In this document: one piece after another, positions 6,001-51,000 of the stretch
How positions within the stretch are numbered: the first letter of the stretch is position 1
Layout of the letters: every line of letters starts with the position of its first letter
Assembly (NCBI GenBank): GCA_964016885.1
Contig: OZ024744.1
Span: forward strand, 128,650,001-128,714,000
Length of the DNA stretch: 64,000 nt
Reading direction: 5' to 3'
DNA from: Eledone cirrhosa
Lineage: Eukaryota
The notes under the pieces: generated by a model
The model's input: only the letters and a program-made list of their open reading frames with translations
The model's database searches: none
Told to the model about the DNA's origin: nothing
Translations under genes and position numbers: made by a program

Positions 6001-6908
6001 GTTGGGGTTAATTTAAGTTGGGGTTAAGTTAAGTTGGGTTTAAGTTAAGTTGGGTCTAAGTTAAGTTGGGGTTAAGTTAAGTTGAGGTTAAGTTAAGTTG
6101 GGATTAAGTTAAGTTGGGGTCAAGTTAAGTTGGGGTTAAGTTAAGTTGGGGTTAAGTTAGGTTGGGGTCAAGTTATGTTGGGGGTAAGTTAAGTTGGGGG
6201 TAAGTTAAGTTGGGGGTAAGTTAAGTTGGGGGTGAGTTAAGTTGGTGGTAAGTTAAGTTGGGGGTAAGTTAAGATGGGGTTAAGTTAAGTTGGGGTTAAT
6301 TTAATTTGGGGTTAAGTTAAGTTAGGGTTAAGTTAAGTTGGGGTTGAGTTAAGTTGGGGTTAAGTTAAGTTGGGGTTATGTTAAGTTGGGGATAAGTTAA
6401 GTTGGGGTTAAGTTAAGTTGGGGTTCAATTAAGTTGCGGTTAATTTAAGTTGGGGTTAAGTTAAGTTCGGGTTAAGTTAAGTTGGGGTTAAGTTAAGTTG
6501 GGGTTAAATTAAGTTAGGGCTAAGTTAAGTTGAGGTTATGTTAAGTTGGTGTTAAGTTAAGTTGGGGTTAAGTTAAGTTGGGGTTAAGTTAAGTTGGGGT
6601 TAAGTTAAGTTGGGTTTAAGTTAAGTTGGGGCTAAGTTAAGTTGGGGCTAAGTTAAGTTGGGGTTAAGTTAAGTTGGAGTTAAGTTAAGTTGGGGTTAAG
6701 TTAGGTTGGTGTTAAGTTAAGTTGGGGGTAAGTTAAGTTGGGGGTAAGTTAAGTTGGTGTTAAGTTAAGTTGGGGTTAAGTTAAGTTGGGGCTAAGTTAA
6801 GTTGGGTTTAAGTTAAGTTGGGTCTAAGTTAAGTTGGGGTTAAGTTAAGTTGGGGTTAACTTAAGTTGGGGGTAAGTTAAGTTGGGTTTGAGTTAAGTTG
6901 GGGTTAAG
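1..6908 (+). repeat. 16-bp G-rich satellite array (TTGGGGTTAAGTTAAG)n, block 1, open at window start
   Basis: Continuous head-to-tail 16-mers with scattered substitutions (GGGGG, GGTG, GCGG, TTGAG, CTAAG) and rare 11/15-bp monomers; top strand nearly devoid of C. Confidence 0.99.
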
Positions 6909-7500
6909 TTAGGTTTTTCGAAAACCTTATATAATCATTTTTTTTTAGGTTTTTCGAAACACCTTATATAATCAATTTTTTTATGTTTTTCCAAAAACCT
7001 TATATAATCATTTTTTTTATACTTTTAGAAATATTTATATCTGATTTCAAATATTTATTTTTCTAGGTTTTTCGAAAACCTTATATAATCAATTTTTTTT
7101 AGGTTTTTCGAAAAATGTTATATAATCAATTTTTTTTAGGTTTTTCGAAAAACCTTATATAATCAATTTTTTTTTAGGTTTTTCGAAACACCTTATATAA
7201 TCAATTTTTTTTAGGTTTTTCGAAAAACCTTATATAATCAATTTTTTTTAGGTTTTTCGAAAAACCTTATATAATCAATTTTTTTAGGTTTTTCGTAAAA
7301 CCTTATATAATCAATTTTTTTAGGTTTTTCGAAAAACCTTATATAATCAATTTTTTTTAGGTTTTTCGAAATACCTTATATAATTAATTTTTTTTAGGTT
7401 TTTCGAAAAATCTTATATAATTAATTTATATCTGATTTCAAATATTGATTTTTTTAGGTTTTTCGAAAACCTTATATAATCAATTTTTTTTAGGTTTTTC
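6909..7500 (+). repeat. Left array of 36-38 bp minisatellite AGGTTTTTCGAAAAACCT-TATATAATCAA-T7-9
   Basis: Unit starts e.g. at 7213, 7250, 7286, 7322; interrupted twice by the TTTATATCTGATTTCAAATATT segment also found in the core units. Confidence 0.95.
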
Positions 7501-9420
7501 GAAAAAGAATGAATTCATATTCGAAATATATACTTCTGCATTAATCTTTTTACGTTTTTCTGATTTTTTGCATGTTTTGAAATTTAAAAAAAACGTAAAA
7601 AATTAATGCTTTTACAAATATTTTGAAATATTTACTTTCTGGTTTCAAATTTTGCAAATTAAATTTTTTTCTAAAAAAATCAGTTTTCGAAATCAGAAGT
7701 TAATATTTCGAAAAACGCAATTTAAAAAACTCATATTAATTTTTTTTCGAATGAAGTTTTTTTATGCTTTTAGAAATATTTATATCTGATTTAAAATATT
7801 GATTTTTTTAGGTTTACCTTATATAATCAAATTTTTTTAGGTTTTTCGAAATATCTTATATAATCAATTTTTTTTAGGTTTTTCGAAAAAGAATGAATTT
7901 GAGTTCATAGTCGAAATATATACTTCTGCATTAATCTTTGATTTTTTGCATGTTTTGAAATCTAAAAAAAACGTAAAAAATTAATGCTTTTACAAATATT
8001 TTGAAATATTTACTTTCTGGTTTCTAAGTTTGCAAATTAAATTTTTTTCGAAAAACCTAAAAAAATCAGTTTTTGAAATCAGAAGTTAATATTTCGAAAA
8101 ACGCAATTTGAAAAACTCATATTAATTTTTTTTCGAATGAAGTTTTTTATACTTTTAGAAATATTTATATCTGATTTCAAATATTGATTTTTTTAGGTTT
8201 TTCGAAAAAGAATGAATTTGAGTTCATAGTCGAAATATATATTTCTGCATTAATCTTTTTACGTTTTTCTGATTTTTTGCATGTTTTGAAATTTAAAAAA
8301 AACGTAAAAAAACAATATTTCGAAAAACGCAATTTGAAAAACTCATATTCATTTTTTTTCGAATGAATTCTTTCATACTTTTAGAAATATTTATATCTGA
8401 TTTTAAATATTGATTTTTTTAGGTTTACCTTATATAATCAAATGTTTTTAGGTTTTTCGAAAAAGAATGAATTTGAGTTCATAGTCGAAATATATACTTC
8501 TGCATTAATCTTTTTACGTTTTTCTGATTTTTTGCATGTTTTGAAATTTAAAAAAAAACGTAAAAAATTAATGCTTTTACAAATATTTTGAAATATTTAC
8601 TTTCTGGTTTCGAATTTTGCAAATTAAATTTTTTTCGAAAAAAACCTAAAAAAATCAGTTTTCGAAATCAGAAGTTAATATTTCGAAAAACGCAATTTGA
8701 AAAACTCATATTAATTTTTTTTCGAATGAAGTTTTTTTATGCTTTTAGAAATATTTATATCTGATTTCAAATATTGATTTTTTTAGGTTTTTCGAAAAAT
8801 CTTATATAATCAATTTTTTTTAGGTTTTTCGAAAAAGAATGAATTTGAGTTCATAGTCGAAATATATACTTCTGCATTAATCTTTGATTTTTTGCATGTT
8901 TTGAAATTTAAAAAAAACGTAAAAAATTAATATTTCGAAAAACGCAATTTGAAAAACTCATATTAATTTTTTTTCGAATGAATTCTTTTATACTTTTAGA
9001 AATATTTATATCTGATTTTAAATATTGATTTTTTTAGGTTTACCTTATATAATCAAATTTTTTTAGGTTGTTCGAAAAATCTTATATAATCAAATTTTTT
9101 TAGGTTTTTCGAAAAAGAATTTGAGTTCATAGTCGAAATATATACTTCTGCATTAATCTTTTTACGTTTTTCTGATTTTTTGCATGTTTTGAAATTTAAA
9201 AAAAACGTAAAAAATTAATGCTTTTACAAATATTTTGAAATATTTACTTTCTGGTTTCAAATTTTGTAAATTAAATTTTTTTCGAAAAACCTAAAAAAAT
9301 CAGTTTTCGAAATCAGAAGTTAATATTTCGAAAAACGCAATTTAAAAAACTCATATTAATTTTTTTTCGAATGAATTCTTTTAGAAATATTTATATCTGA
9401 TTTCAAATATTGATTTTTTT
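7501..9420 (+). repeat. Island 1 core: six tandem ~255-385 bp units (long, long, short, long, short, long)
   Basis: Marker GAAAAAGAAT at 7501, 7885, 8204, 8459, 8831, 9111; short units lack the ~100-bp GCTTTTACAAAT...CAGAAG segment. Confidence 0.92.
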
Positions 9421-9816
9421 AGGTTTACCTTATATAATCAAATTTTTTTAGGTTTTTCAAAAACCTTATATAATCAATTTTTTTTAGGTTTTTCGAAAAA
9501 CCTTACATAATCAATTTTTTTTAGGTTTTTTCGAAAAACCTTATATAATCAATTTTTTACGTTTTTAGAAAAACCTTATATAATCAATTTTTTTTATACT
9601 TTTAGAAATATTTATATCTTATTTCAAATATTGATTTTTTTTAGATTTTTCGAAATAACTTATATAATCAATTTTTCTAGGTGTTTCGAAAAACCTTATA
9701 TAATCAATTTTTTTTAGGTTTTTCGAAAGACCTTATATAATCAATTTTTTTTAGGTTTTTCGAAAAACCTTATATAATCAATTTTTTTAAGTTTTTCGAC
9801 AACCTTATATAATCAA
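9421..9816 (+). repeat. Right array of the ~37-bp palindromic minisatellite
   Basis: Same unit and orientation as the left array; ends CGACAACCTTATATAATCAA. Confidence 0.93.
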
Positions 9817-12800
9817 GTTGAGTTTAAGTTAAGTTGGGATTAAGTTAAGTTGGGGTTAAGTTAAGATGGGGTTAAGTTATGTTGAGGTTAAGTTAAGTTG
9901 GGGTTAAATTAAGTTGGGGTTAAGTTAAGTTGGGGTTAAGTTAAGTTGGGGTTAGGTTAAGTTGGGTTTAAGTTAAGTTGGGGATAAGTTAAGTTGGGGT
10001 TAAGTTAAGTTGGGTTTAAGTTAAGTTGGGGTTAAGTTAAGTTGGGGTTAAGTTAAGTTGGGGTTAAATTAAGTTGGGGTTAAGTTAAGTTGGGGTTGAG
10101 TGAAGTTGGGGTTAAGTTAAGTTGGGGTTAAATTAAATTGGGGTTAAGTTAAGTTGGGGTTGAGTGAAGTTGGGGTTAAGTTAAGTTGGGGTTAAATTAA
10201 GTTGGGGTTAAGTTTAGTTGGGGTTGAGTTAAGTTGGGGTTAATTTAAGTTGGGGCTAAGTTAATTTGTGGTTAAGTTAAGTTGGGGTTAAGTTAAGTTG
10301 GGGTTAAGTTAAGTTGGGGTTGAGTTAAGTTGGGGTTAAGTTAAGTTGGGTTTAAGTTAAGTTGGGGTTAAATTAAGTTGGGGTTAAATTAAGTTGGGGT
10401 TAAGTTAAGTTGGGGGTAAGTTAAGTTGGGGGCAAGTTAAGTTGGGGTTAAGTTAAGTTGGGGTTAAGTTAAGTTGGGGTTAATTTAAGTTGGGGTTATG
10501 TTAAGTCGGGGTTAAGTTAAGTTGGGGTTAAGTTAAGTTGGGGGTAAGTTACGTTAGGGCTAAGTTAAGTTGGGGTTAAGTTAAGTTGGTGTTAAGTTAA
10601 GTTGGGGGTAAGTTACGTTAGGGCTAAGTTACGTTGGGGTTAACTTAACCCCAACTTAACTTAACCCCAACTTAACTTAGACCCAACTTAACTGAGCCCC
10701 AACTTAACTTAACCCCAACGTAACTTAGCCCTAACGTAACTTACCCCCAACTTAACTTAACACCAACTTAACTTAACCCCAACTTAACTTACCCCCAACT
10801 TAACTTACCCCCAACTTAACTTACCCCCAACTTAACTTAACCCCAACTTAACTTAACTTAACCCCAACTTAAGTTAAGTTTGGGTTAAGGTTGGGGTTAA
10901 ATTAAGTTGGGGTTAAGTTAAGTTGGGGTTAAGTTAAGTTGGGGTTAAGTTAAGTTGGGGGTAAGTTAAGTTGGGGTTAAGTTAAGTTCGGGTTAAGTTA
11001 AGTTGGTGTTAAGTTAAGTTGGGGCTGAGTTAAGTTGGGGCTAAGTTAAGTTGGGTCTAAGTTAAGTAGGGGTTAAGTTAAGTTGGGGTTAAGTTAAGTT
11101 GGTTTTAAATTAAGTTGGGGTTAAATTAAGTTGGTGTTAAGTTAAGTTGGGGTTAAGTTAAGTTGGGGTTAATTAAATTGGGGTTAAGTTAAGTTGGGGT
11201 TAAGTTAATTGGGGTTAAATTAAGTTAGGGTTGAGTTAAGTTGGGGTTAAGTTAAGTTGGGGTTATATTAAGTTGGGGTTAAGTTAAGTTGGGGTTAAGT
11301 AAAGTTGGGGTTCAGTTAAGTTGGGGTTAAGTTAAGTTAGGCTTAACTTAAGTTGGGGTTAAGTTAAGTTGGGGGTGAGTTAAGTTGGGGGTAAGTTAAG
11401 TTGGGGTTAAGTTAAGTTGGGGTTAAGTTGGGGTTAAGTTAATTTAGGGTTAAGTTAAGTTGGGGTTGAGTTAAGTTGGGGTTAAGTTAAGTGGTGGTTA
11501 TGTTAAGTTGGGGTTAAGTTAAGTTGGGGTTAATTTAAATTGGGGTTAATTTAACTTTGTGGTTAAGTTAATTTGGGGTTAATTTAAGTTGGGGTTAAGT
11601 TAAGTTGGGGTTAATTTAATTTGTGGTTAAGTTAAGTTGGGGTTAAGTTAAGTTGGCGTTGAGTTAAGCTGGGGTTAAGTTAAGTTGGGGTTAAAATAAG
11701 TTGGGGTTAATTTAAGTTGGGGCTGAGTTAAGTTGGGGTTAAGTTGGGGTTGAGTTAAGTTGGGGTTAAGTTAAGTTGGGATTAAGTTAAGTTGGGGTTA
11801 AGTTAAGTTCGGGTTGAGTTAAGTTGGGGTTAAATTAAGTTGGGGTTAATTTAAGTTGGGGTTAAGTTAAGTTGGGGTTAAGATAAGTTGGGGTTAAGTT
11901 AAGTTGGGGTTAAGTTAAGTTGGGGTTGAGTTAATTTGGGGTTAAGTTAAGTTGGGGTTAACTTAAGTTGGGGTTAAGTTAAGTTGGGGTTAAGTTAAGT
12001 TGGGGGTAAGTTAAGTTGGGGGCAAGTTGAGTTGGGGTTAAGTTAAGTTGGGGTTAAGTTAAGGTGGGGGTAAGTTAAGTTGGGGGTAAGTTAAGTTGGG
12101 GTTAAGTTAAGTTGGGGTTAAGTTAAGTTGGGTTTGAGTTAAGTTGGGGCTAAGTTAAGTTGGGGCTAAGTTAAGTTGGGGCTAAGTTAAGTTGGGGCTG
12201 AGTTAAGTTGGGGTTAAGTTAAGTTGGGGTTGAGTTAAGTTGGGGTTAACTTAAGTTGGGGTTAAGTTGGGGTTAAGTTAAGTTGGGGTTAAGTTAAGTT
12301 GGGGGTTAGTTAAGTTGGGGGCAAGTTAAGTTGGGGTTAATTTAAGTTGGGGTTAAGTTAAGTTGGGGTTATGTTAAGTTGGGGTTAAGTTAAGTTGGGG
12401 TTAAGTTAAGTTGGGGGTAAGTTATGTTGGGGTTAAGTTAAGTTGGGGGTAAGTTAAGTTGAGGGTAAGTTAAGTTGGGGTTAAGTTACGTTGGGGTTAA
12501 ATTAAGTTGGGGTAAGTTAAGCCGGGGGTAAGTTAAGTTGGGGTTAAGTTAAGTTGGGGTTAAATTAAGTTGAGGTTAAGTTAAGTTGGGGTTAAATTAA
12601 GTTGGGGGTAAGATAAGTTGGGGCTAAGTTAAGTTGGGGCTAAGTCAAGTTGGGGTTAAGTCAAGTTGAGGTTAACTTAAGTTGGGGTTAAGTTAAGTTG
12701 GGGTTAAGTTAAGTTGGGGTTAAGGTAAGTTGGGGTTATGTTAAGTTGGGGCTAAGTTAAGTTGGGGCTAAGTTGGGGCTAAGTTAAGTTGGGGCTGAGT

Positions 12801-27800: not shown

Positions 27801-29052
27801 TTAACTTAAGTTGGGGTTAACTTAAGTTGGGGTTAAGTTAAGTTGGGTTTATGTTAAGTTGGGGATAAGTTAAGTTGGGGTTAAGTTAAGTTGGGGTTCA
27901 ATTAAGTTGCGGTTAATTTAAGTTGGGGTTAAGTTAAGTTGGGGTTAAGTTAAGTTGGGGTTAAGTTAAGTTGGGGTTAAATTAAGTTAGGGCTAAGTTA
28001 AGTTGAGGTTATGTTAAGTTGGTGTTAAGTTAGGTTGGTGTTAAGTTAAGTTGGGGGTAAGTTAAGTTGGGGGTAAGTTAAGTTGGTGTTAAGTTAAGTT
28101 GGGGTTAAGTTAAGTTGGGGTTAATTTAAGTTGGGGTTAAGTTAAGTTGGGTTTAAGTTAAGTTGGGTCTAAGTTAAGTTGGGGTTAAGTTAAGTTGAGG
28201 TTAAGTTAAGTTGGGATTAAGTTAAGTTGGGGTTAAGTTAAGTTGGGGTTAAGTTAAGTTGGGGTTAAGTTAGGTTGGGGTCAAGTTATGTTGGGGGTAA
28301 GTTAAGTTGGGGGTAAGTTAAGTTGGGGTTAGGTTAAGTTGGGGTTAAGTTAAGTTGGGGTTAAGTTAAGTTGGGGTTACGTTAAGTTGGGGGTGAGTTA
28401 AGTTGGTGGTAAGTTAAGTTGGGGGTAAGTTAAGATGGGGTTAAGTTAAGTTGGGGTTAATTTAATTTGGGGTTAAGTTAAGTTAGGGTTAAGTTAAGTT
28501 GGGGTTGAGTTAAGTTGGGGTTAAGTTAAGTTGGGGTTATGTTAAGTTGGGGATAAGTTAAGTTGGGGTTAAGTTAAGTTGGGGTTCAATTAAGTTGCGG
28601 TTAATTTAAGTTGGGGTTAAGTTAAGTTCGGGTTAAGTTAAGTTGGGGTTAAGTTAAGTTGGGGTTAAATTAAGTTAGGGCTAAGTTAAGTTGAGGTTAT
28701 GTTAAGTTGGTGTTAAGTTAAGTTGGGGTTAAGTTAAGTTGGGGTTAAGTTAAGTTGGGGTTAAGTTAAGTTGGGTTTAAGTTAAGTTGGGGCTAAGTTA
28801 AGTTGGGGTTAAGTTAGGTGGGGTTAAGTTAAGTTGGGGTTAAGTTAGGTTGGTGTTAAGTTAAGTTGGGGGTAAGTTAAGTTGGGGGTAAGTTAAGTTG
28901 GTGTTAAGTTAAGTTGGGGTTAAGTTAAGTTGGGGTTAAGTTAAGTTGGGTTTAAGTTAAGTTGGGTCTAAGTTAAGTTGGGGTTAAGTTAAGTTGGGGT
29001 TAACTTAAGTTGGGGGTAAGTTAAGTTGGGTTTGAGTTAAGTTGGGGTTAAG
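9817..29052 (+). repeat. 16-bp satellite array, block 2 (contains inversion 10640-10872 and kb-scale duplications)
   Basis: Same 16-mer consensus; variant strings recur in order (AGATTGTTG at 18283, 20609, 23116, 24502, 27009). Confidence 0.99.
10640..10872 (-). repeat. Inverted (C-rich) satellite block 1, 233 bp, TTAA to TTAA
   Basis: Reads (CTTAACTTAACCCCAA)n; left junction GGGG-TTAA-CTTAACCCC, right junction CCCCAAC-TTAA-GTT. Confidence 0.97.
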
Positions 29053-31349: not shown

Positions 31350-34300
31350 GTTGAGTTTAAGTTAAGTTGGGATTAAGTTAAGTTGGGGTTAAGTTAAGAT
31401 GGGGTTAAGTTATGTTGAGGTTAAGTTAAGTTGGGGTTAAATTAAGTTGGGGTTAAGTTAAGTTGGGGTTAAGTTAAGTTGGGGTTAGGTTAAGTTGGGT
31501 TTACGTTAAGTTGGGGATAAGTTAAGTTGGGGTTAAGTTAAGTTGGGTTTAAGTTAAGTTGGGGTTAAGTTAAGTTGGGGTTAAGTTAAGTTGGGGTTAA
31601 ATTAAGTTGGGGTTAAGTTAAGTTGGGGTTGAGTGAAGTTGGGGTTAAGTTAAGTTGGGGTTAAATTAAGTTGGGGTTAAGTTAAGTTGTGGTTGAGTGA
31701 AGTTGGGGTTAAGTTAAGTTGGGGTTAAATTAAGTTGGGGTTAAGTTTAGTTGGGGTTGAGTTAAGTTGGGGGTAAGTTAAGTTGGGGGCAAGTTAAGTT
31801 GGGGTTAAGTTAAGTTGGGGTTAAGTTAAGTTGGGGTTAATTTAAGTTGGGGTTATGTTAAGTTGGGGTTAAGTTAAGTTGGGGTTAAGTTAAGTTGGGG
31901 GTAAGTTACGTTAGGGCTAAGTTAAGTTGGGGTTAAGTTAAGTTGGTGTTAAGTTAAGTTGGGGGTAAGTTACGTTAGGGCTAAGTTACGTTGGGGTTAA
32001 CTTAACCCCAACTTAACTTAACCCCAACTTAACTTAGACCCAACTTAACTGAGCCCCAACTTAACTTAACCCCAACGTAACTTAGCCCTAACGTAACTTA
32101 CCCCCAACTTAACTTAACACCAACTTAACTTAACCCCAACTTAACTTACCCCCAACTTAACTTACCCCCAACTTAACTTACCCCCAACTTAACTTAACCC
32201 CAACTTAACTTAACTTAACCCCAACTTAAGTTAAGTTTGGGTTAAGGTTGGGGTTAAATTAAGTTGGGGTTAAGTTAAGTTGGGGTTAAGTTAAGTTGGG
32301 GTTAAGTTAAGTTGGGGGTAAGTTAAGTTGGGGTTAAGTTAAGTTCGGGTTAAGTTAAGTTGGTGTTAAGTTAAGTTGGGGCTGAGTTAAGTTGGGGCTA
32401 AGTTAAGTTGGGTCTAAGTTAAGTTGGGGTTAAGTTAAGTTGGGGTTAAGTTAAGTTGGTGTTAAATTAAGTTGGGGTTAAATTAAGTTGGTGTTAAGTT
32501 AAGTTGGGGTTAAGTTAAGTTGGGGTTAATTAAGTTGGGGTTAAGTTAAGTTGGGGTTAAGTTAATTGGGGTTAAATTAAGTTAGGGTTGAGTTAAGTTG
32601 GGGTTAAGTTAAGTTGGGGTTATATTAAGTTGGGGTTAAGTTAAGTTGAGGTTAAGTAAAGTTGGGGTTCAGTTAAGTTGGGGTTAGGCTTAACTTAAGT
32701 TGGGGTTAAGTTAAGTTGGGGGTGAGTTAAGTTGGGGGTAAGTTAAGTTGGGGTTAAGTTAAGTTGGGGTTAAGTTGGGGTTAAGTTAATTTAGGGTTAA
32801 GTTAAGTTGGGGTTGAGTTAAGTTGGGGTTAAGTTAAGTGGTGGTTATGTTAAGTTGGGGTTAAGTTAAGTTGGGGTTAATTTAAATTGGGGTTAATTTA
32901 ACTTTGTGGTTAAGTTAATTTGGGGTTAATTTAAGTTGGGGTTAAGTTAAGTTGGCGTTGAGTTAAGCTGGGGTTAAGTTAAGTTGGGGTTAAAATAAGT
33001 TGGGGTTAAGTTAAGTTGGGGTTGAGTTAAGTTGGGGTTGAGTTAATTTGGGGTTAAGTTAAGTTGGGGTTAACTTAAGTTGGGTTTAATTTAAGTTGGG
33101 GTTAAGTTAAGTTGGGGTTATAATTAAGTTGGGGTTAAGTTAAGTTGGGGGTAAGATAAGTTGGGGTTAGTTAAGTTGCGGTTAAGTTAAGTTGGGGTTA
33201 AGTTAAGTTGGGGTTAAGTTAAGTTGGGGTTAAGTTAAGTTGGGGTTAATTTAAGTTGGGGTAAAGTTAAGTTGGGGGTAAGTTAAGTTGGGGTTAAGTT
33301 AAGTTGGGGTTAAGTTGGGGTTAAGTTAAGTTAGGGTTAACTTAAGTTGGGGTTGTGTTAAGTGGTGGTTATGTTAAGTGGTGGTTATGTTAAGTTGGGG
33401 TTAAGTTAAGTTGGGGTTAAGTTAAATTGGGGATAAGTTAAGTTGCGGTTAAGTTAAGTTGGGGTTAAGTTAAGTTGGGGTTAAGTTAATTAGGGTTAAG
33501 TTAAGTTGGGGTTAAGTTAAGTTGGGGTTAAGTTAAGTTGGGGTTAAGTTAATTTGTGGTTAAGTTAAGTTGGGGTTAAGTTAAGTTGGGGTTAAGTTAA
33601 GTTGGGGTTAAGTTAAGTTGGGGTTAAGTTAAGTTGGGGTTGAGTTAAGTTGAGGTTAAGTTAAGTCGGGGTTAAGTTAAGTTGAGGTTGAGTTAAGTTG
33701 GGGTTGAGTTAAGTTGGGGTTAAGTTAAGTTGGGGTTAAGTTAAGATGGATTTAAGTTAAGTTGGGGTAAAGTTAAGTTTGGGTTAATTTAAGTTGGGGT
33801 TAAGTTAAGTTGGGGTTGAGTTAAGTTGGGGTTGAGTTAAGTTGGGGTTAAGTTAAGTTGAGGTTAACTTAAGTTGGGGTTAAGTTAAGTTTGGGTTAAT
33901 TTAAGTTGGGGTTAAGTTAAGTTGGGGTTAAGCTAAGTTGGGGTTTATTTAAATTGAGGTTAAGTTAACTTGGGTTTGAGTTAAGTTGGGGTTAAGTTAA
34001 GTTGGGGTTAAGTTAAGTTGGGGTTAAGTTAAGTCGGGGTTAAGTTAAGTTGAGGTTGAGTTAAGTTGGGGTTGAGTTAAGTTGGGGTTAAGTTAAGTTG
34101 GGGTTAAGTTAAGATGGATTTAAGTTAAGTTGGGGTCTAGTTAAGTTGGGGTTATATTAAGTTGGGGTTAAGTTAAGTTGGGGTTAAGTAAAGTTGGGGT
34201 TCAGTTAAGTTGCGGTTAAGTTAAGTTAGGCTTAACTTAAGTTGGGGTTAAGTTAAGTTGGGGGTGAGTTAAGTTGGGGGTAAGTTAAGTTGGGGTTAAG

Positions 34301-48038: not shown

Positions 48039-51000
48039 GTTGAGTTTAAGTTAAGTTGGGATTAAGTTAAGTTGGGGTTAAGTTAAGATGGGGTTAAGTT
48101 ATGTTGAGGTTAAGTTAAGTTGGGGTTAAATTAAGTTGGGGTTAAGTTAAGTTGGGGTTAAGTTAAGTTGGGGTTAAGTTAAGTTGGGGGTAAGTTAAGT
48201 TGGGGTTAAGTTAAGTTCGGGTTAAGTTAAGTTGGTGTTAAGTTAAGTTGGGGCTGAGTTAAGTTGGGTTTAAGTTAAGTTGGGGTTAAGTTAAGTTGGG
48301 GTTAAGTTAAGTTGGGGTTAAATTAAGTTGGGGTTAAGTTAAGTTGGGGTTGAGTGAAGTTGGGGTTAAGTTAAGTTGGGGTTAAATTAAGTTGGGGTTA
48401 AGTTAAGTTGTGGTTGAGTGAAGTTGGGGTTAAGTTAAGTTGGGGTTAAATTAAGTTGGGGTTAAGTTTAGTTGGGGTTGAGTTAAGTTGGGGGTAAGTT
48501 AAGTTGGGGGCAAGTTAAGTTGGGGTTAAGTTAAGTTGGGGTTAAGTTAAGTTGGGGTTAATTTAAGTTGGGGTTATGTTAAGTTGGGGTTAAGTTAAGT
48601 TGGGGTTAAGTTAAGTTGGGGGTAAGTTACGTTAGGGCTAAGTTAAGTTGGGGTTAAGTTAAGTTGGTGTTAAGTTAAGTTGGGGGTAAGTTACGTTAGG
48701 GCTAAGTTACGTTGGGGTTAACTTAACCCCAACTTAACTTAACCCCAACTTAACTTAGACCCAACTTAACTGAGCCCCAACTTAACTTAACCCCAACGTA
48801 ACTTAGCCCTAACGTAACTTACCCCCAACTTAACTTAACACCAACTTAACTTAACCCCAACTTAACTTACCCCCAACTTAACTTACCCCCAACTTAACTT
48901 ACCCCCAACTTAACTTAACCCCAACTTAACTTAACCCCAACTTAAGTTAAGTTTGGGTTAAGGTTGGGGTTAAATTAAGTTGGGGTTAAGTTAAGTTGGG
49001 GTTAAGTTAAGTTGGGGTTAAGTTAAGTTGGGGGTAAGTTAAGTTGGGGTTAAGTTAAGTTCGGGTTAAGTTAAGTTGGTGTTAAGTTAAGTTGGGGCTG
49101 AGTTAAGTTGGGGCTAAGTTAAGTTGGGTCTAAGTTAAGTTGGGGTTAAGTTAAGTTGGGGTTAAGTTAAGTTGGTGTTAAATTAAGTTGGGGTTAAATT
49201 AAGTTGGTGTTAAGTTAAGTTGGGGTTAAGTTAAGTTGGGGTTAATTAAGTTGGGGTTAAGTTGGGGTTAAGTTTAGTTGGGGTTGAGTTAAGTTGGGGG
49301 TAAGTTAAGTTGGGGGCAAGTTAAGTTGGGGTTAAGTTAAGTTGGGGTTAAGTTAAGTTGGGGTTAATTTAAGTTGGGGTTATGTTAAGTTGGGGTTAAG
49401 TTAAGTTGGGGTTAATTAAGTTGGGGTTAAGTTAAGTTGGGGTTAAGTTAATTGGGGTTAAATTAAGTTAGGGTTGAGTTAAGTTGGGGTTAAGTTAAGT
49501 TGGGGTTATATTAAGTTGGGGTTAAGTTAAGTTGAGGTTAAGTAAAGTTGGGGTTCAGTTAAGTTGGGGTTAGGCTTAACTTAAGTTGGGGTTAAGTTAA
49601 GTTGGGGGTGAGTTAAGTTGGGGGTAAGTTAAGTTGGGGTTAAGTTAAGTTGGGGTTAAGTTGGGGTTAAGTTAATTTAGGGTTAAGTTAAGTTGGGGTT
49701 GAGTTAAGTTGGGGTTAAGTTAAGTGGTGGTTAATTTAAGTTGGGGTTAAGTTAAGTTGGGGTTAATTTAAATTGGGGTTAATTTAACTTTGTGGTTAAG
49801 TTAATTTGGGGTTAATTTAAGTTGGGGTTAAGTTAAGTTGGCGTTGAGTTAAGCTGGGGTTAAGTTAAGTTGGGGTTAAAATAAGTTGGGGTTAAGTTAA
49901 GTTGGGGTTGAGTTAAGTTGGGGTTGAGTTAATTTGGGGTTAAGTTAAGTTGGGGTTAACTTAAGTTGGGTTTAATTTAAGTTGGGGTTAAGTTAAGTTG
50001 GGGTTATAATTAAGTTGGGGTTAAGTTAAGTTGGGGGTAAGATAAGTTGGGGTTAGTTAAGTTGCGGTTAAGTTAAGTTGGGGTTAAGTTAAGTTGGGGT
50101 TAAGTTAAGTTGGGGTTAAGTTAAGTTGGGGTTAATTTAAGTTGGGGTAAAGTTAAGTTGGGGGTAAGTTAAGTTGGGGTTAAGTTAAGTTGGGGTTAAG
50201 TTGGGGTTAAGTTAAGTTAGGGTTAACTTAAGTTGGGGTTGTGTTAAGTGGTGGTTATGTTAAGTGGTGGTTATGTTAAGTTGGGGTTAAGTTAAGTTGG
50301 GGTTAAGTTAAATTGGGGTTAAGTTAAGTTGCGGTTAAGTTAAGTTGGGGTTAAGTTAAGTTGGGGTTAAGTTAATTAGGGTTAAGTTAAGTTGGGGTTA
50401 AGTTAAGTTGGGGTTAAGTTAAGTTGGGGTTAAGTTAATTTGTGGTTAAGTTAAGTTGGGGTTAAGTTAAGTTGGGGTTAAGTTAAGTTGGGGTTAAGTT
50501 AAGTTGGGGTTAAGTTAAGTTGGGGTTGAGTTAAGTTGAGGTTAAGTTAAGTCGGGGTTAAGTTAAGTTGAGGTTGAGTTAAGTTGGGGTTGAGTTAAGT
50601 TGGGGTTAAGTTAAGTTGGGGTTAAGTTAAGATGGATTTAAGTTAAGTTGGGGTAAAGTTAAGTTTGGGTTAATTTAAGTTGGGGTTAAGTTAAGTTGGG
50701 GTTAAGCTAAGTTGGGGTTTATTTAAATTGAGGTTAAGTTAACTTGGGTTTGAGTTAAGTTGGGGTTAAGTTAAGTTGGGGTTAAGTTAAGTTGGGGTTA
50801 AGTTAAGTCGGGGTTAAGTTAAGTTGAGGTTGAGTTAAGTTGGGGTTGAGTTAAGTTGGGGTTAAGTTAAGTTGGGGTTAAGTTAAGATGGATTTAAGTT
50901 AAGTTGGGGTCTAGTTAAGTTGGGGTTAAGTTAAGTTGGGGTAAAGTTAAGTTGGGGTTAATTTAAGTTGAGGTTAAGTTAACTTGGGGTTAAGTTAAGT

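Follow-up and report, generated by a model that had tools for sequence, protein, structure and literature searches.

The window, the whole 64,000-nucleotide stretch of Eledone cirrhosa DNA analysed here, covers positions 128,650,001-128,714,000 of C28, a 136.5-Mb contig in a genome of 3.0 Gb. It is made up of a G-rich 16-bp satellite, TTAAGTTAAGTTGGGG, that is present in ~3,850 copies on the plus strand (1-61648), shows higher-order variant patterns and is interrupted by four AT-rich islands. The first island (6902-9818), which marks a macro-unit, contains 37-bp and ~320-bp subrepeats. Other islands start at 29046, 45735 and 61635, and the fourth runs just past the window end. The islands form a second repeat family with ~19% G+C that also has matches near the end of C21 (at 35.14 of 35.40 Mb) and on C916. 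An rDNA spacer or RNA gene was considered as the identity of the islands and rejected, as Rfam returned no matches in the window and none for the island family (five island-family loci, C21 and C916; 114 kb).

On C28 the satellite extends from ~124.6 to 134.5 Mb, an interstitial block of ~10 Mb that was sampled, with ~1.1 Mb of C28 sequence read. It is also present on C18 and C3. The array is not a telomere, since it is interstitial and the sequence at 135.5 Mb and in the last 10 kb of C28 is different; it does not occupy a terminal position with the G strand directed towards the chromosome end. The C28 terminus is a C/A-rich tandem repeat of ~26-28 bp that differs from the 16-mer. At C28 ~124.590-124.599 Mb, the satellite adjoins a diverged repeat with the similar words AACCCCAA and CTTAGACTTAAA, possibly an older relative of the 16-mer. 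The 16-bp monomer, queried as four 16-base rotations, did not appear in the literature searched, which covered few subscription journals.

Downstream of the first island, a 233-bp block of the array is inverted, reaching from the TTAA at 10640-10643 to the TTAA at 10869-10872. The left arm (10561-10643, plus strand) comprises five G-rich monomers and a TTAA, deviates from the consensus at six bases and carries the variants GGTG, GGGGG, TTACG (twice) and TAGGGC. Its exact reverse complement is the right arm (10709-10791, minus strand), and the match is maximal at 83 bp. The two arms are separated by a 65-bp spacer (10644-10708, minus strand) that is C-rich and, with the switch in polarity located where the left arm meets it, likewise inverted. 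At the left junction (10640-10643), the first TTAA of a forward monomer is fused to the second TTAA of a reversed monomer. Behind the right arm follows a tail of reversed GGGGG-type monomers and one monomer with an extra TTAAG (10792-10868, minus strand), whose monomer number differs between copies, and the TTAA at 10869-10872 forms the right end of the inverted block. The part of the block that duplicates the present neighbour amounts to 83 of 233 bases, and the 81-bp tail (10792-10872) has no match in the present upstream flank. The forward context past the right junction, a TTTGGG monomer and a short monomer, is found elsewhere in the array without the inversion. A four-monomer near-duplicate of part of the left arm precedes it (10497-10560, plus strand) in window-type copies and is missing from others.

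The same structure occurs twice more in the window. The second copy (31918-32229, with the inverted block at 31997-32229) is identical to 10561-10872, and the third (48639-48945, with the block at 48718-48945) is 307 bp long, being 5 bp shorter in the tail. A first-pass annotation had described the perfect 83-bp inverted duplicate with its 65-bp spacer, TTAA at both breakpoints and the two further copies, and each of these points proved exact. In its reading, self-pairing of a strand over many monomers was possible nowhere else. Within the window this holds; the three copies are its only C-rich blocks. The wider satellite, described below, tells otherwise.

Diagnostic words from the inversion were searched genome-wide. 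There are 29 matches to the left-junction 21-mer, 30 to the spacer 25-mer and 74 to the arm 22-mer, none of them outside C28 128.56-129.60 Mb, and all 74 matches of the arm word lie at these inversion sites. In the fetched sequence, 30 intact copies with the same pair of junctions are present within 1 Mb, together with one partial copy inside a larger palindrome. Their inverted blocks measure 216-249 bp and the copies differ by nested point variants and monomer indels. Because the same two junctions recur in all 30 intact copies, the inversion has one origin and was amplified afterwards.

The arms have decayed since. Exact arm length is 99 bp in nine copies, 83 bp in 11 and 7-53 bp in the remaining 10. 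Both diagnostic monomers are unchanged in 30/30 blocks, and four left arms have private changes. The GGTG monomer is missing from the left arm in 7/30 copies and kept in the block in 29/30. Six point changes and one monomer loss affect one arm only and are never mirrored on the other, so there is no visible ongoing homogenisation; the sole candidate for a mirrored change would be the GGTG monomer, if its absence from seven left arms reflects a gain by conversion elsewhere and not a loss. In an anchored comparison of the 30 copies with flanks of a length similar to the block, there are three distinct substitutions in the block, 8-9 in the left flank and seven in the right (one-sided p ~0.08). 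Such low variability counts against pure neutrality and fits either constraint or shielding from exchange with forward monomers; a reversed block cannot exchange with these unless the array is rearranged, and this may be the reason for it.

The distribution of the copies is patchy. The fetched stretches contain 39 island ends. For 15 of them, another island or the end of the stretch is reached without an inversion; 14 are followed by one within 1.4 kb. Four units carry two or three, spaced by ~1.3 kb in some. Two regions, C28 128.450-128.565 Mb and 128.857-129.101 Mb (the latter 244 kb), are free of inversions, and reversed monomers account for 1.1% of the 663 kb of satellite within a contiguous 760 kb. 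The proposal that the structure is retained once per macro-unit near the island therefore describes three of the four window islands and goes no further: the fourth (61635 on) lacks an inversion at the usual position, with the next one 10.8 kb further, and the count of units with and without the inversion contradicts it across the fetched stretches. This patchiness is what passive amplification with repeat units of variable size gives. Together with the broken arms, it indicates that the inversion was likely carried along passively with the repeat units, which favours the hitch-hiking option that the annotation had left beside a functional one.

The satellite contains further polarity switches. 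On C18, an inversion of roughly 150 bp is present in three copies (C18:10,129,102; 10,132,202; 10,188,778). It has exact arms of 67-68 bp, a 28-bp inverted spacer and TTAA at both ends, as well as an additional 74-bp match that is one monomer out of step. On C28, the region 128,584,615-128,587,180 forms a perfect palindrome with exact arms of 1,265 bp and a 36-bp spacer; it is a single copy known from the assembly only. This palindrome turns within an island, and in intact islands the right arm is preceded by a unit whose reverse complement forms the spacer of the palindrome. Its outer end lies inside a copy of the micro-inversion, whose reversed monomers there read forward and join the ordinary array. 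It also holds the only forward copy of the diagnostic spacer 25-mer in the genome. The position of its outer end suggests that the micro-inversion supplied the homology that closed the larger inverted duplication. The C18 inversion and the 1,265-bp palindrome are independent events with the same signature as the window inversion.

Across the satellite, patterns of polarity switching gave 1,415 head-to-head and 365 tail-to-tail matches, overlapping ones counted; the junction listing leaves out degenerate matches from the diverged repeat at 124.59 Mb. Most belong to one GGGG-TTAA-CCCC junction family with at least 689 exact sites that is unrelated to the window inversion. Its blocks are ~110-490 bp long and its tail junction is not at TTAA. 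Among the matches listed, this old family occupies C28 124.6-124.7 and 130.2-134.5 Mb, in both array orientations, with junctions every ~1-4 kb in places. None of 52 junctions examined has a duplicate of its neighbour. One of the 52, at C28:130,478,315, has monomers swapped across the palindromic junction relative to sister copies, resembling a spacer flip. Single TTAA junctions at C28 131,964,574 and 132,859,234 border reversed domains and likewise have neither a neighbour duplicate nor a short-spacer arm. From C28:131,964,574 to at least 132,870,000, the array is reversed at both sampled ends, and a 2-kb forward block lies between the family junction at 132,857,193 and the TTAA junction at 132,859,234. 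Given that the duplicate is absent from the 52 junctions of the large family and from both single TTAA junctions, the signature is not a general one. With this many polarity switches elsewhere in the satellite, the premise that the window-type inversions are the sole sites of self-pairing fails beyond the window.

We consider it probable, at about two in three, that a single inter-strand template switch during replication, followed by passive duplication with the surrounding repeats, gave rise to the 30 copies with the same junctions. A G-rich nascent strand ending in TTAA would have paired with a TTAA on the opposite template, 65 nt further on. Synthesis would then have proceeded in the backward direction across the spacer, the neighbour and a few additional monomers before the nascent strand returned through another TTAA; a mirror-image event on the other strand would yield the same product. 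The inversion copy would subsequently have spread with the 1.3-kb and roughly 10-35-kb repeat units, and its arms would have lost symmetry through point changes and monomer indels. One copy later likely supplied the homology that closed the 1.3-kb inverted duplication. The replication step, the order of these events and their neutrality are what we infer from the copies as they now stand.

The inverted spacer and the choice of junction point in this direction. According to passages of the four-point model of Loytynoja and Goldman (PMC5453318), events of type 3-1-2-4 or its mirror 1-3-4-2, which make up 23% of the high-confidence human-chimp events there, leave an inverted repeat whose spacer is inverted as well, and spacer inversion needs an inter-strand switch. 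Passages in PMC8604942 support the same outcome for these types. TTAA is the only 4-mer that the monomer consensus shares with its own reverse complement, and there are no shared 5-mers. As the sole such 4-mer and the longest self-complementary shared word, it explains the choice of junction without a nuclease. Both observations support the first-pass suggestion of template switching at microhomologies. The un-inverted ancestor was not found in genome-wide pattern searches or among left and right contexts in 814 kb of tokenised array; in seven copies the left context runs into another higher-order unit instead. The assembly thus offers a reconstruction of the event and not a direct view of it. 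The mismatch between the 81-bp tail and the present upstream flank needs a further slip or a later replacement of the flank. G-quadruplex stalling was considered as a trigger (G4Hunter score of the monomer, 1.125) and set aside; the short jump falls on opposite strands in the window and C18 events compared with the 1,265-bp event, so no consistent case for it can be made.

The tail mismatch would be accounted for if the array first underwent a plain inversion and the block later served to perfect the left arm, by fold-back (intra-strand) template switching or gene conversion. The seven left arms without the GGTG monomer, which is kept in 29 of 30 blocks, could then be the original state and the others a conversion gain, and the swapped monomers at 1 of 52 large-family junctions (C28:130,478,315) indicate that secondary switching does occur in this satellite. 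Against this sequence of events, the six point changes and one monomer loss have remained unmirrored between the arms, the C18 block traces almost wholly to its neighbour and spacer, and PMC5453318 reports no evidence of intra-strand events in human-chimp data. We regard this origin as unlikely. More doubtful still is a simple flip, through two breaks repaired at TTAA, of a segment in which a tandem duplicate of the neighbour was already present. Local direct duplications exist in the array, the near-duplicate at 10497-10560 being one, and the junctions on C18 keep the register, so that reversing the block there would give a clean array. But this demands a break exactly where a duplicate ends. 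At 79 of 29,216 forward monomer starts in the fetched array (0.27%), there was a direct copy, ending at the start and located within the next 240 bp, that spanned 83 bp or more and had five variants or more; with at least six variants, the number was seven (0.02%). The starts are not independent, which makes this a rough estimate. A similar coincidence would be needed again on C18 (0.74% at the C18 threshold). Turned back, the window block would also leave abnormal monomers at its two breaks, of 11 bp on the left and 21 bp on the right; 11-mers represent 1,283 of 41,432 forward monomers, and the word of the 21-mer is present three times in 760 kb. The rarity of suitable breaks and the 11-mer and 21-mer left behind make a clean flip improbable and uphold the original description of an inverted duplication.

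Two further origins can be weighed by the junctions themselves. The ends of piggyBac elements have CCC...GGG adjoining TTAA. A piggyBac-type transposase might have taken GGGG-TTAA for an element end and produced the inversions by aberrant transposition, and GGGG-TTAA is indeed found at the left junctions of both the window inversion and the large family. However, a GGG end is not joined at TTAA at every junction: both C18 junctions are at the second TTAA and lack a GGG end, which largely refutes this origin, the tail junction of the large family lies away from TTAA, and the 1,265-bp palindrome turns within an island. We give it very little credence. An assembly or sequencing artefact caused by fold-back chimeras is the least credible of all; the single-copy palindrome of 1,265 bp, known from the assembly, could be one, but 30 copies share two junctions over 1 Mb with nested lineage-specific variants and different flanks, and a read chimera would not go back to the forward strand at a fixed base. 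The inversion is real and represents a fresh example of a known mutation type.

Secondary structure bears on a possible role of the inversion. The predicted DNA fold of the inversion strand has a free energy of -136 kcal/mol, compared with -28 for forward satellite of equal length, and the predicted RNA fold reaches -150 kcal/mol with an 83-bp stem. A transcript of the inversion, if made, would thus be predicted to form a strong hairpin with the long stem expected of a hairpin-RNA or endo-siRNA locus. Pairing with nearby forward monomers is 89-92% for any reversed block, so a hairpin is independent of the perfect arm. The first-pass annotation had proposed that such double-stranded RNA feeds siRNA-directed heterochromatin for the whole array. 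This role is unsupported: 15 of 39 units and a 244-kb region lack the inversion, the arms are broken in 10 of 30 copies, and a second family of at least 689 junctions provides polarity switches of its own.

Whatever its origin, the hairpin might still have been selected, either as a source of double-stranded RNA that yields siRNA or is subject to A-to-I editing, or as a non-B DNA site with a part in organising heterochromatin. The predicted folding energies of RNA and DNA would suit such a role, inversions arose in the satellite several times, one family growing to at least 689 junctions, the block varies slightly less than its flanks do, and function has been proposed for conserved inversion sites in Tribolium satellites (passages in PMC13081366 and PMC12581902). 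The patchy presence and broken arms count against selection, as do the 1.1% share of reversed monomers among satellite bases in the 760-kb stretch and the ~90% pairing that renders a perfect arm dispensable. We consider selection on the hairpin quite unlikely, and nothing shows that the inversion does anything.

A template switch followed by passive amplification can be compared with systems described elsewhere, each in the passages of the source that concern the structure in question. In the 3-1-2-4 type of the four-point model (PMC5453318), the arms derive from adjacent sequence, as do the 83-bp exact arms with their six variants. The spacer is inverted, as is the C-rich spacer here, and for the 1,265-bp event this can be read directly against intact islands. 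The model also expects the whole inserted fragment to be a single contiguous reverse copy of the ancestral locus; here the 81-bp tail mismatches the present flank, and the searches described above found no ancestor. Compared with the events in that source, the fragment is ~230 bp, sits in a satellite and has been amplified 30-fold, and the four-point fit lacks an ancestral sequence. ODIRA junctions at yeast SUL1 (PMC10766186) involve 5-6-bp repeats 40-80 bp apart, and the palindromes rearrange secondarily. The window inversion resembles them in its interrupted palindrome, short inverted microhomology, spacer of tens of bases and secondary rearrangement via repeats. The 65 bp between the two TTAA words are within the 40-80-bp interruption, whereas the spacers of 28 and 36 bp fall below it. 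ODIRA further involves a replication origin inside the amplicon, paired fork junctions, a dog-bone intermediate and an inverted triplication; no triplication was seen here. Quasi-palindrome correction and spacer inversion by the Ripley mechanism in yeast (PMC8604942) are similar in arm homogenisation and in spacer flips, of which the large family has one, but the cases in that source require pre-existing arms of ~10-16 bp.

The satellites of Tribolium offer a further comparison. As related in sections of PMC13081366 and PMC12581902, they contain amplified, conserved inversion junctions in megabase arrays, for which a function is proposed but untested. Both systems have few junction types in hundreds to thousands of copies, megabase blocks and an intermingled second satellite; here two conserved types occur in 30 and at least 689 copies. 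In Tribolium the subarrays measure kilobases, are symmetric and occur on all chromosomes, in contrast to the blocks described here, which are ~110-490 bp, asymmetric and patchy. A macro-dyad in which inverted kilobase subarrays of similar length prevail is not what the window satellite has, with blocks of 216-249 bp and 1.1% reversed sequence. The phrase 'template switch' does not occur in either of the two Tribolium sources. Among the titles and abstract openings searched, with subscription journals sparsely covered, none tied satellite polarity switches to template switching.

The mutation type has already been described in bacteria, yeast and primates, and beetle satellites are known to carry amplified inversion junctions. 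This locus adds a readable record with three independent events of the same inter-strand signature. Since variant monomers tag the source of each inverted piece, the origin of satellite polarity switches becomes testable. We speculate that orientation switches in satellites start as short-range inter-strand template switches at self-complementary monomer words, that the resulting micro-inversions then act as hinges for larger inverted duplications and inversions closed by homology, and that the array keeps the whole series. This generalisation is tentative. If true, the series would run from arm-spacer-arm events of 68, 83-99 and 1,265 bp through an old family of at least 689 junctions to reversed domains of kilobases to megabases, and those conserved inversion sites and macro-dyads to which function has been ascribed in other animals could then have come about by mutation alone. 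Strong conservation and repetition of a junction are, as this locus shows, not by themselves a sign of function. The value of the locus lies in an unusually complete series of events within one satellite, and not in the proposed silencing role.
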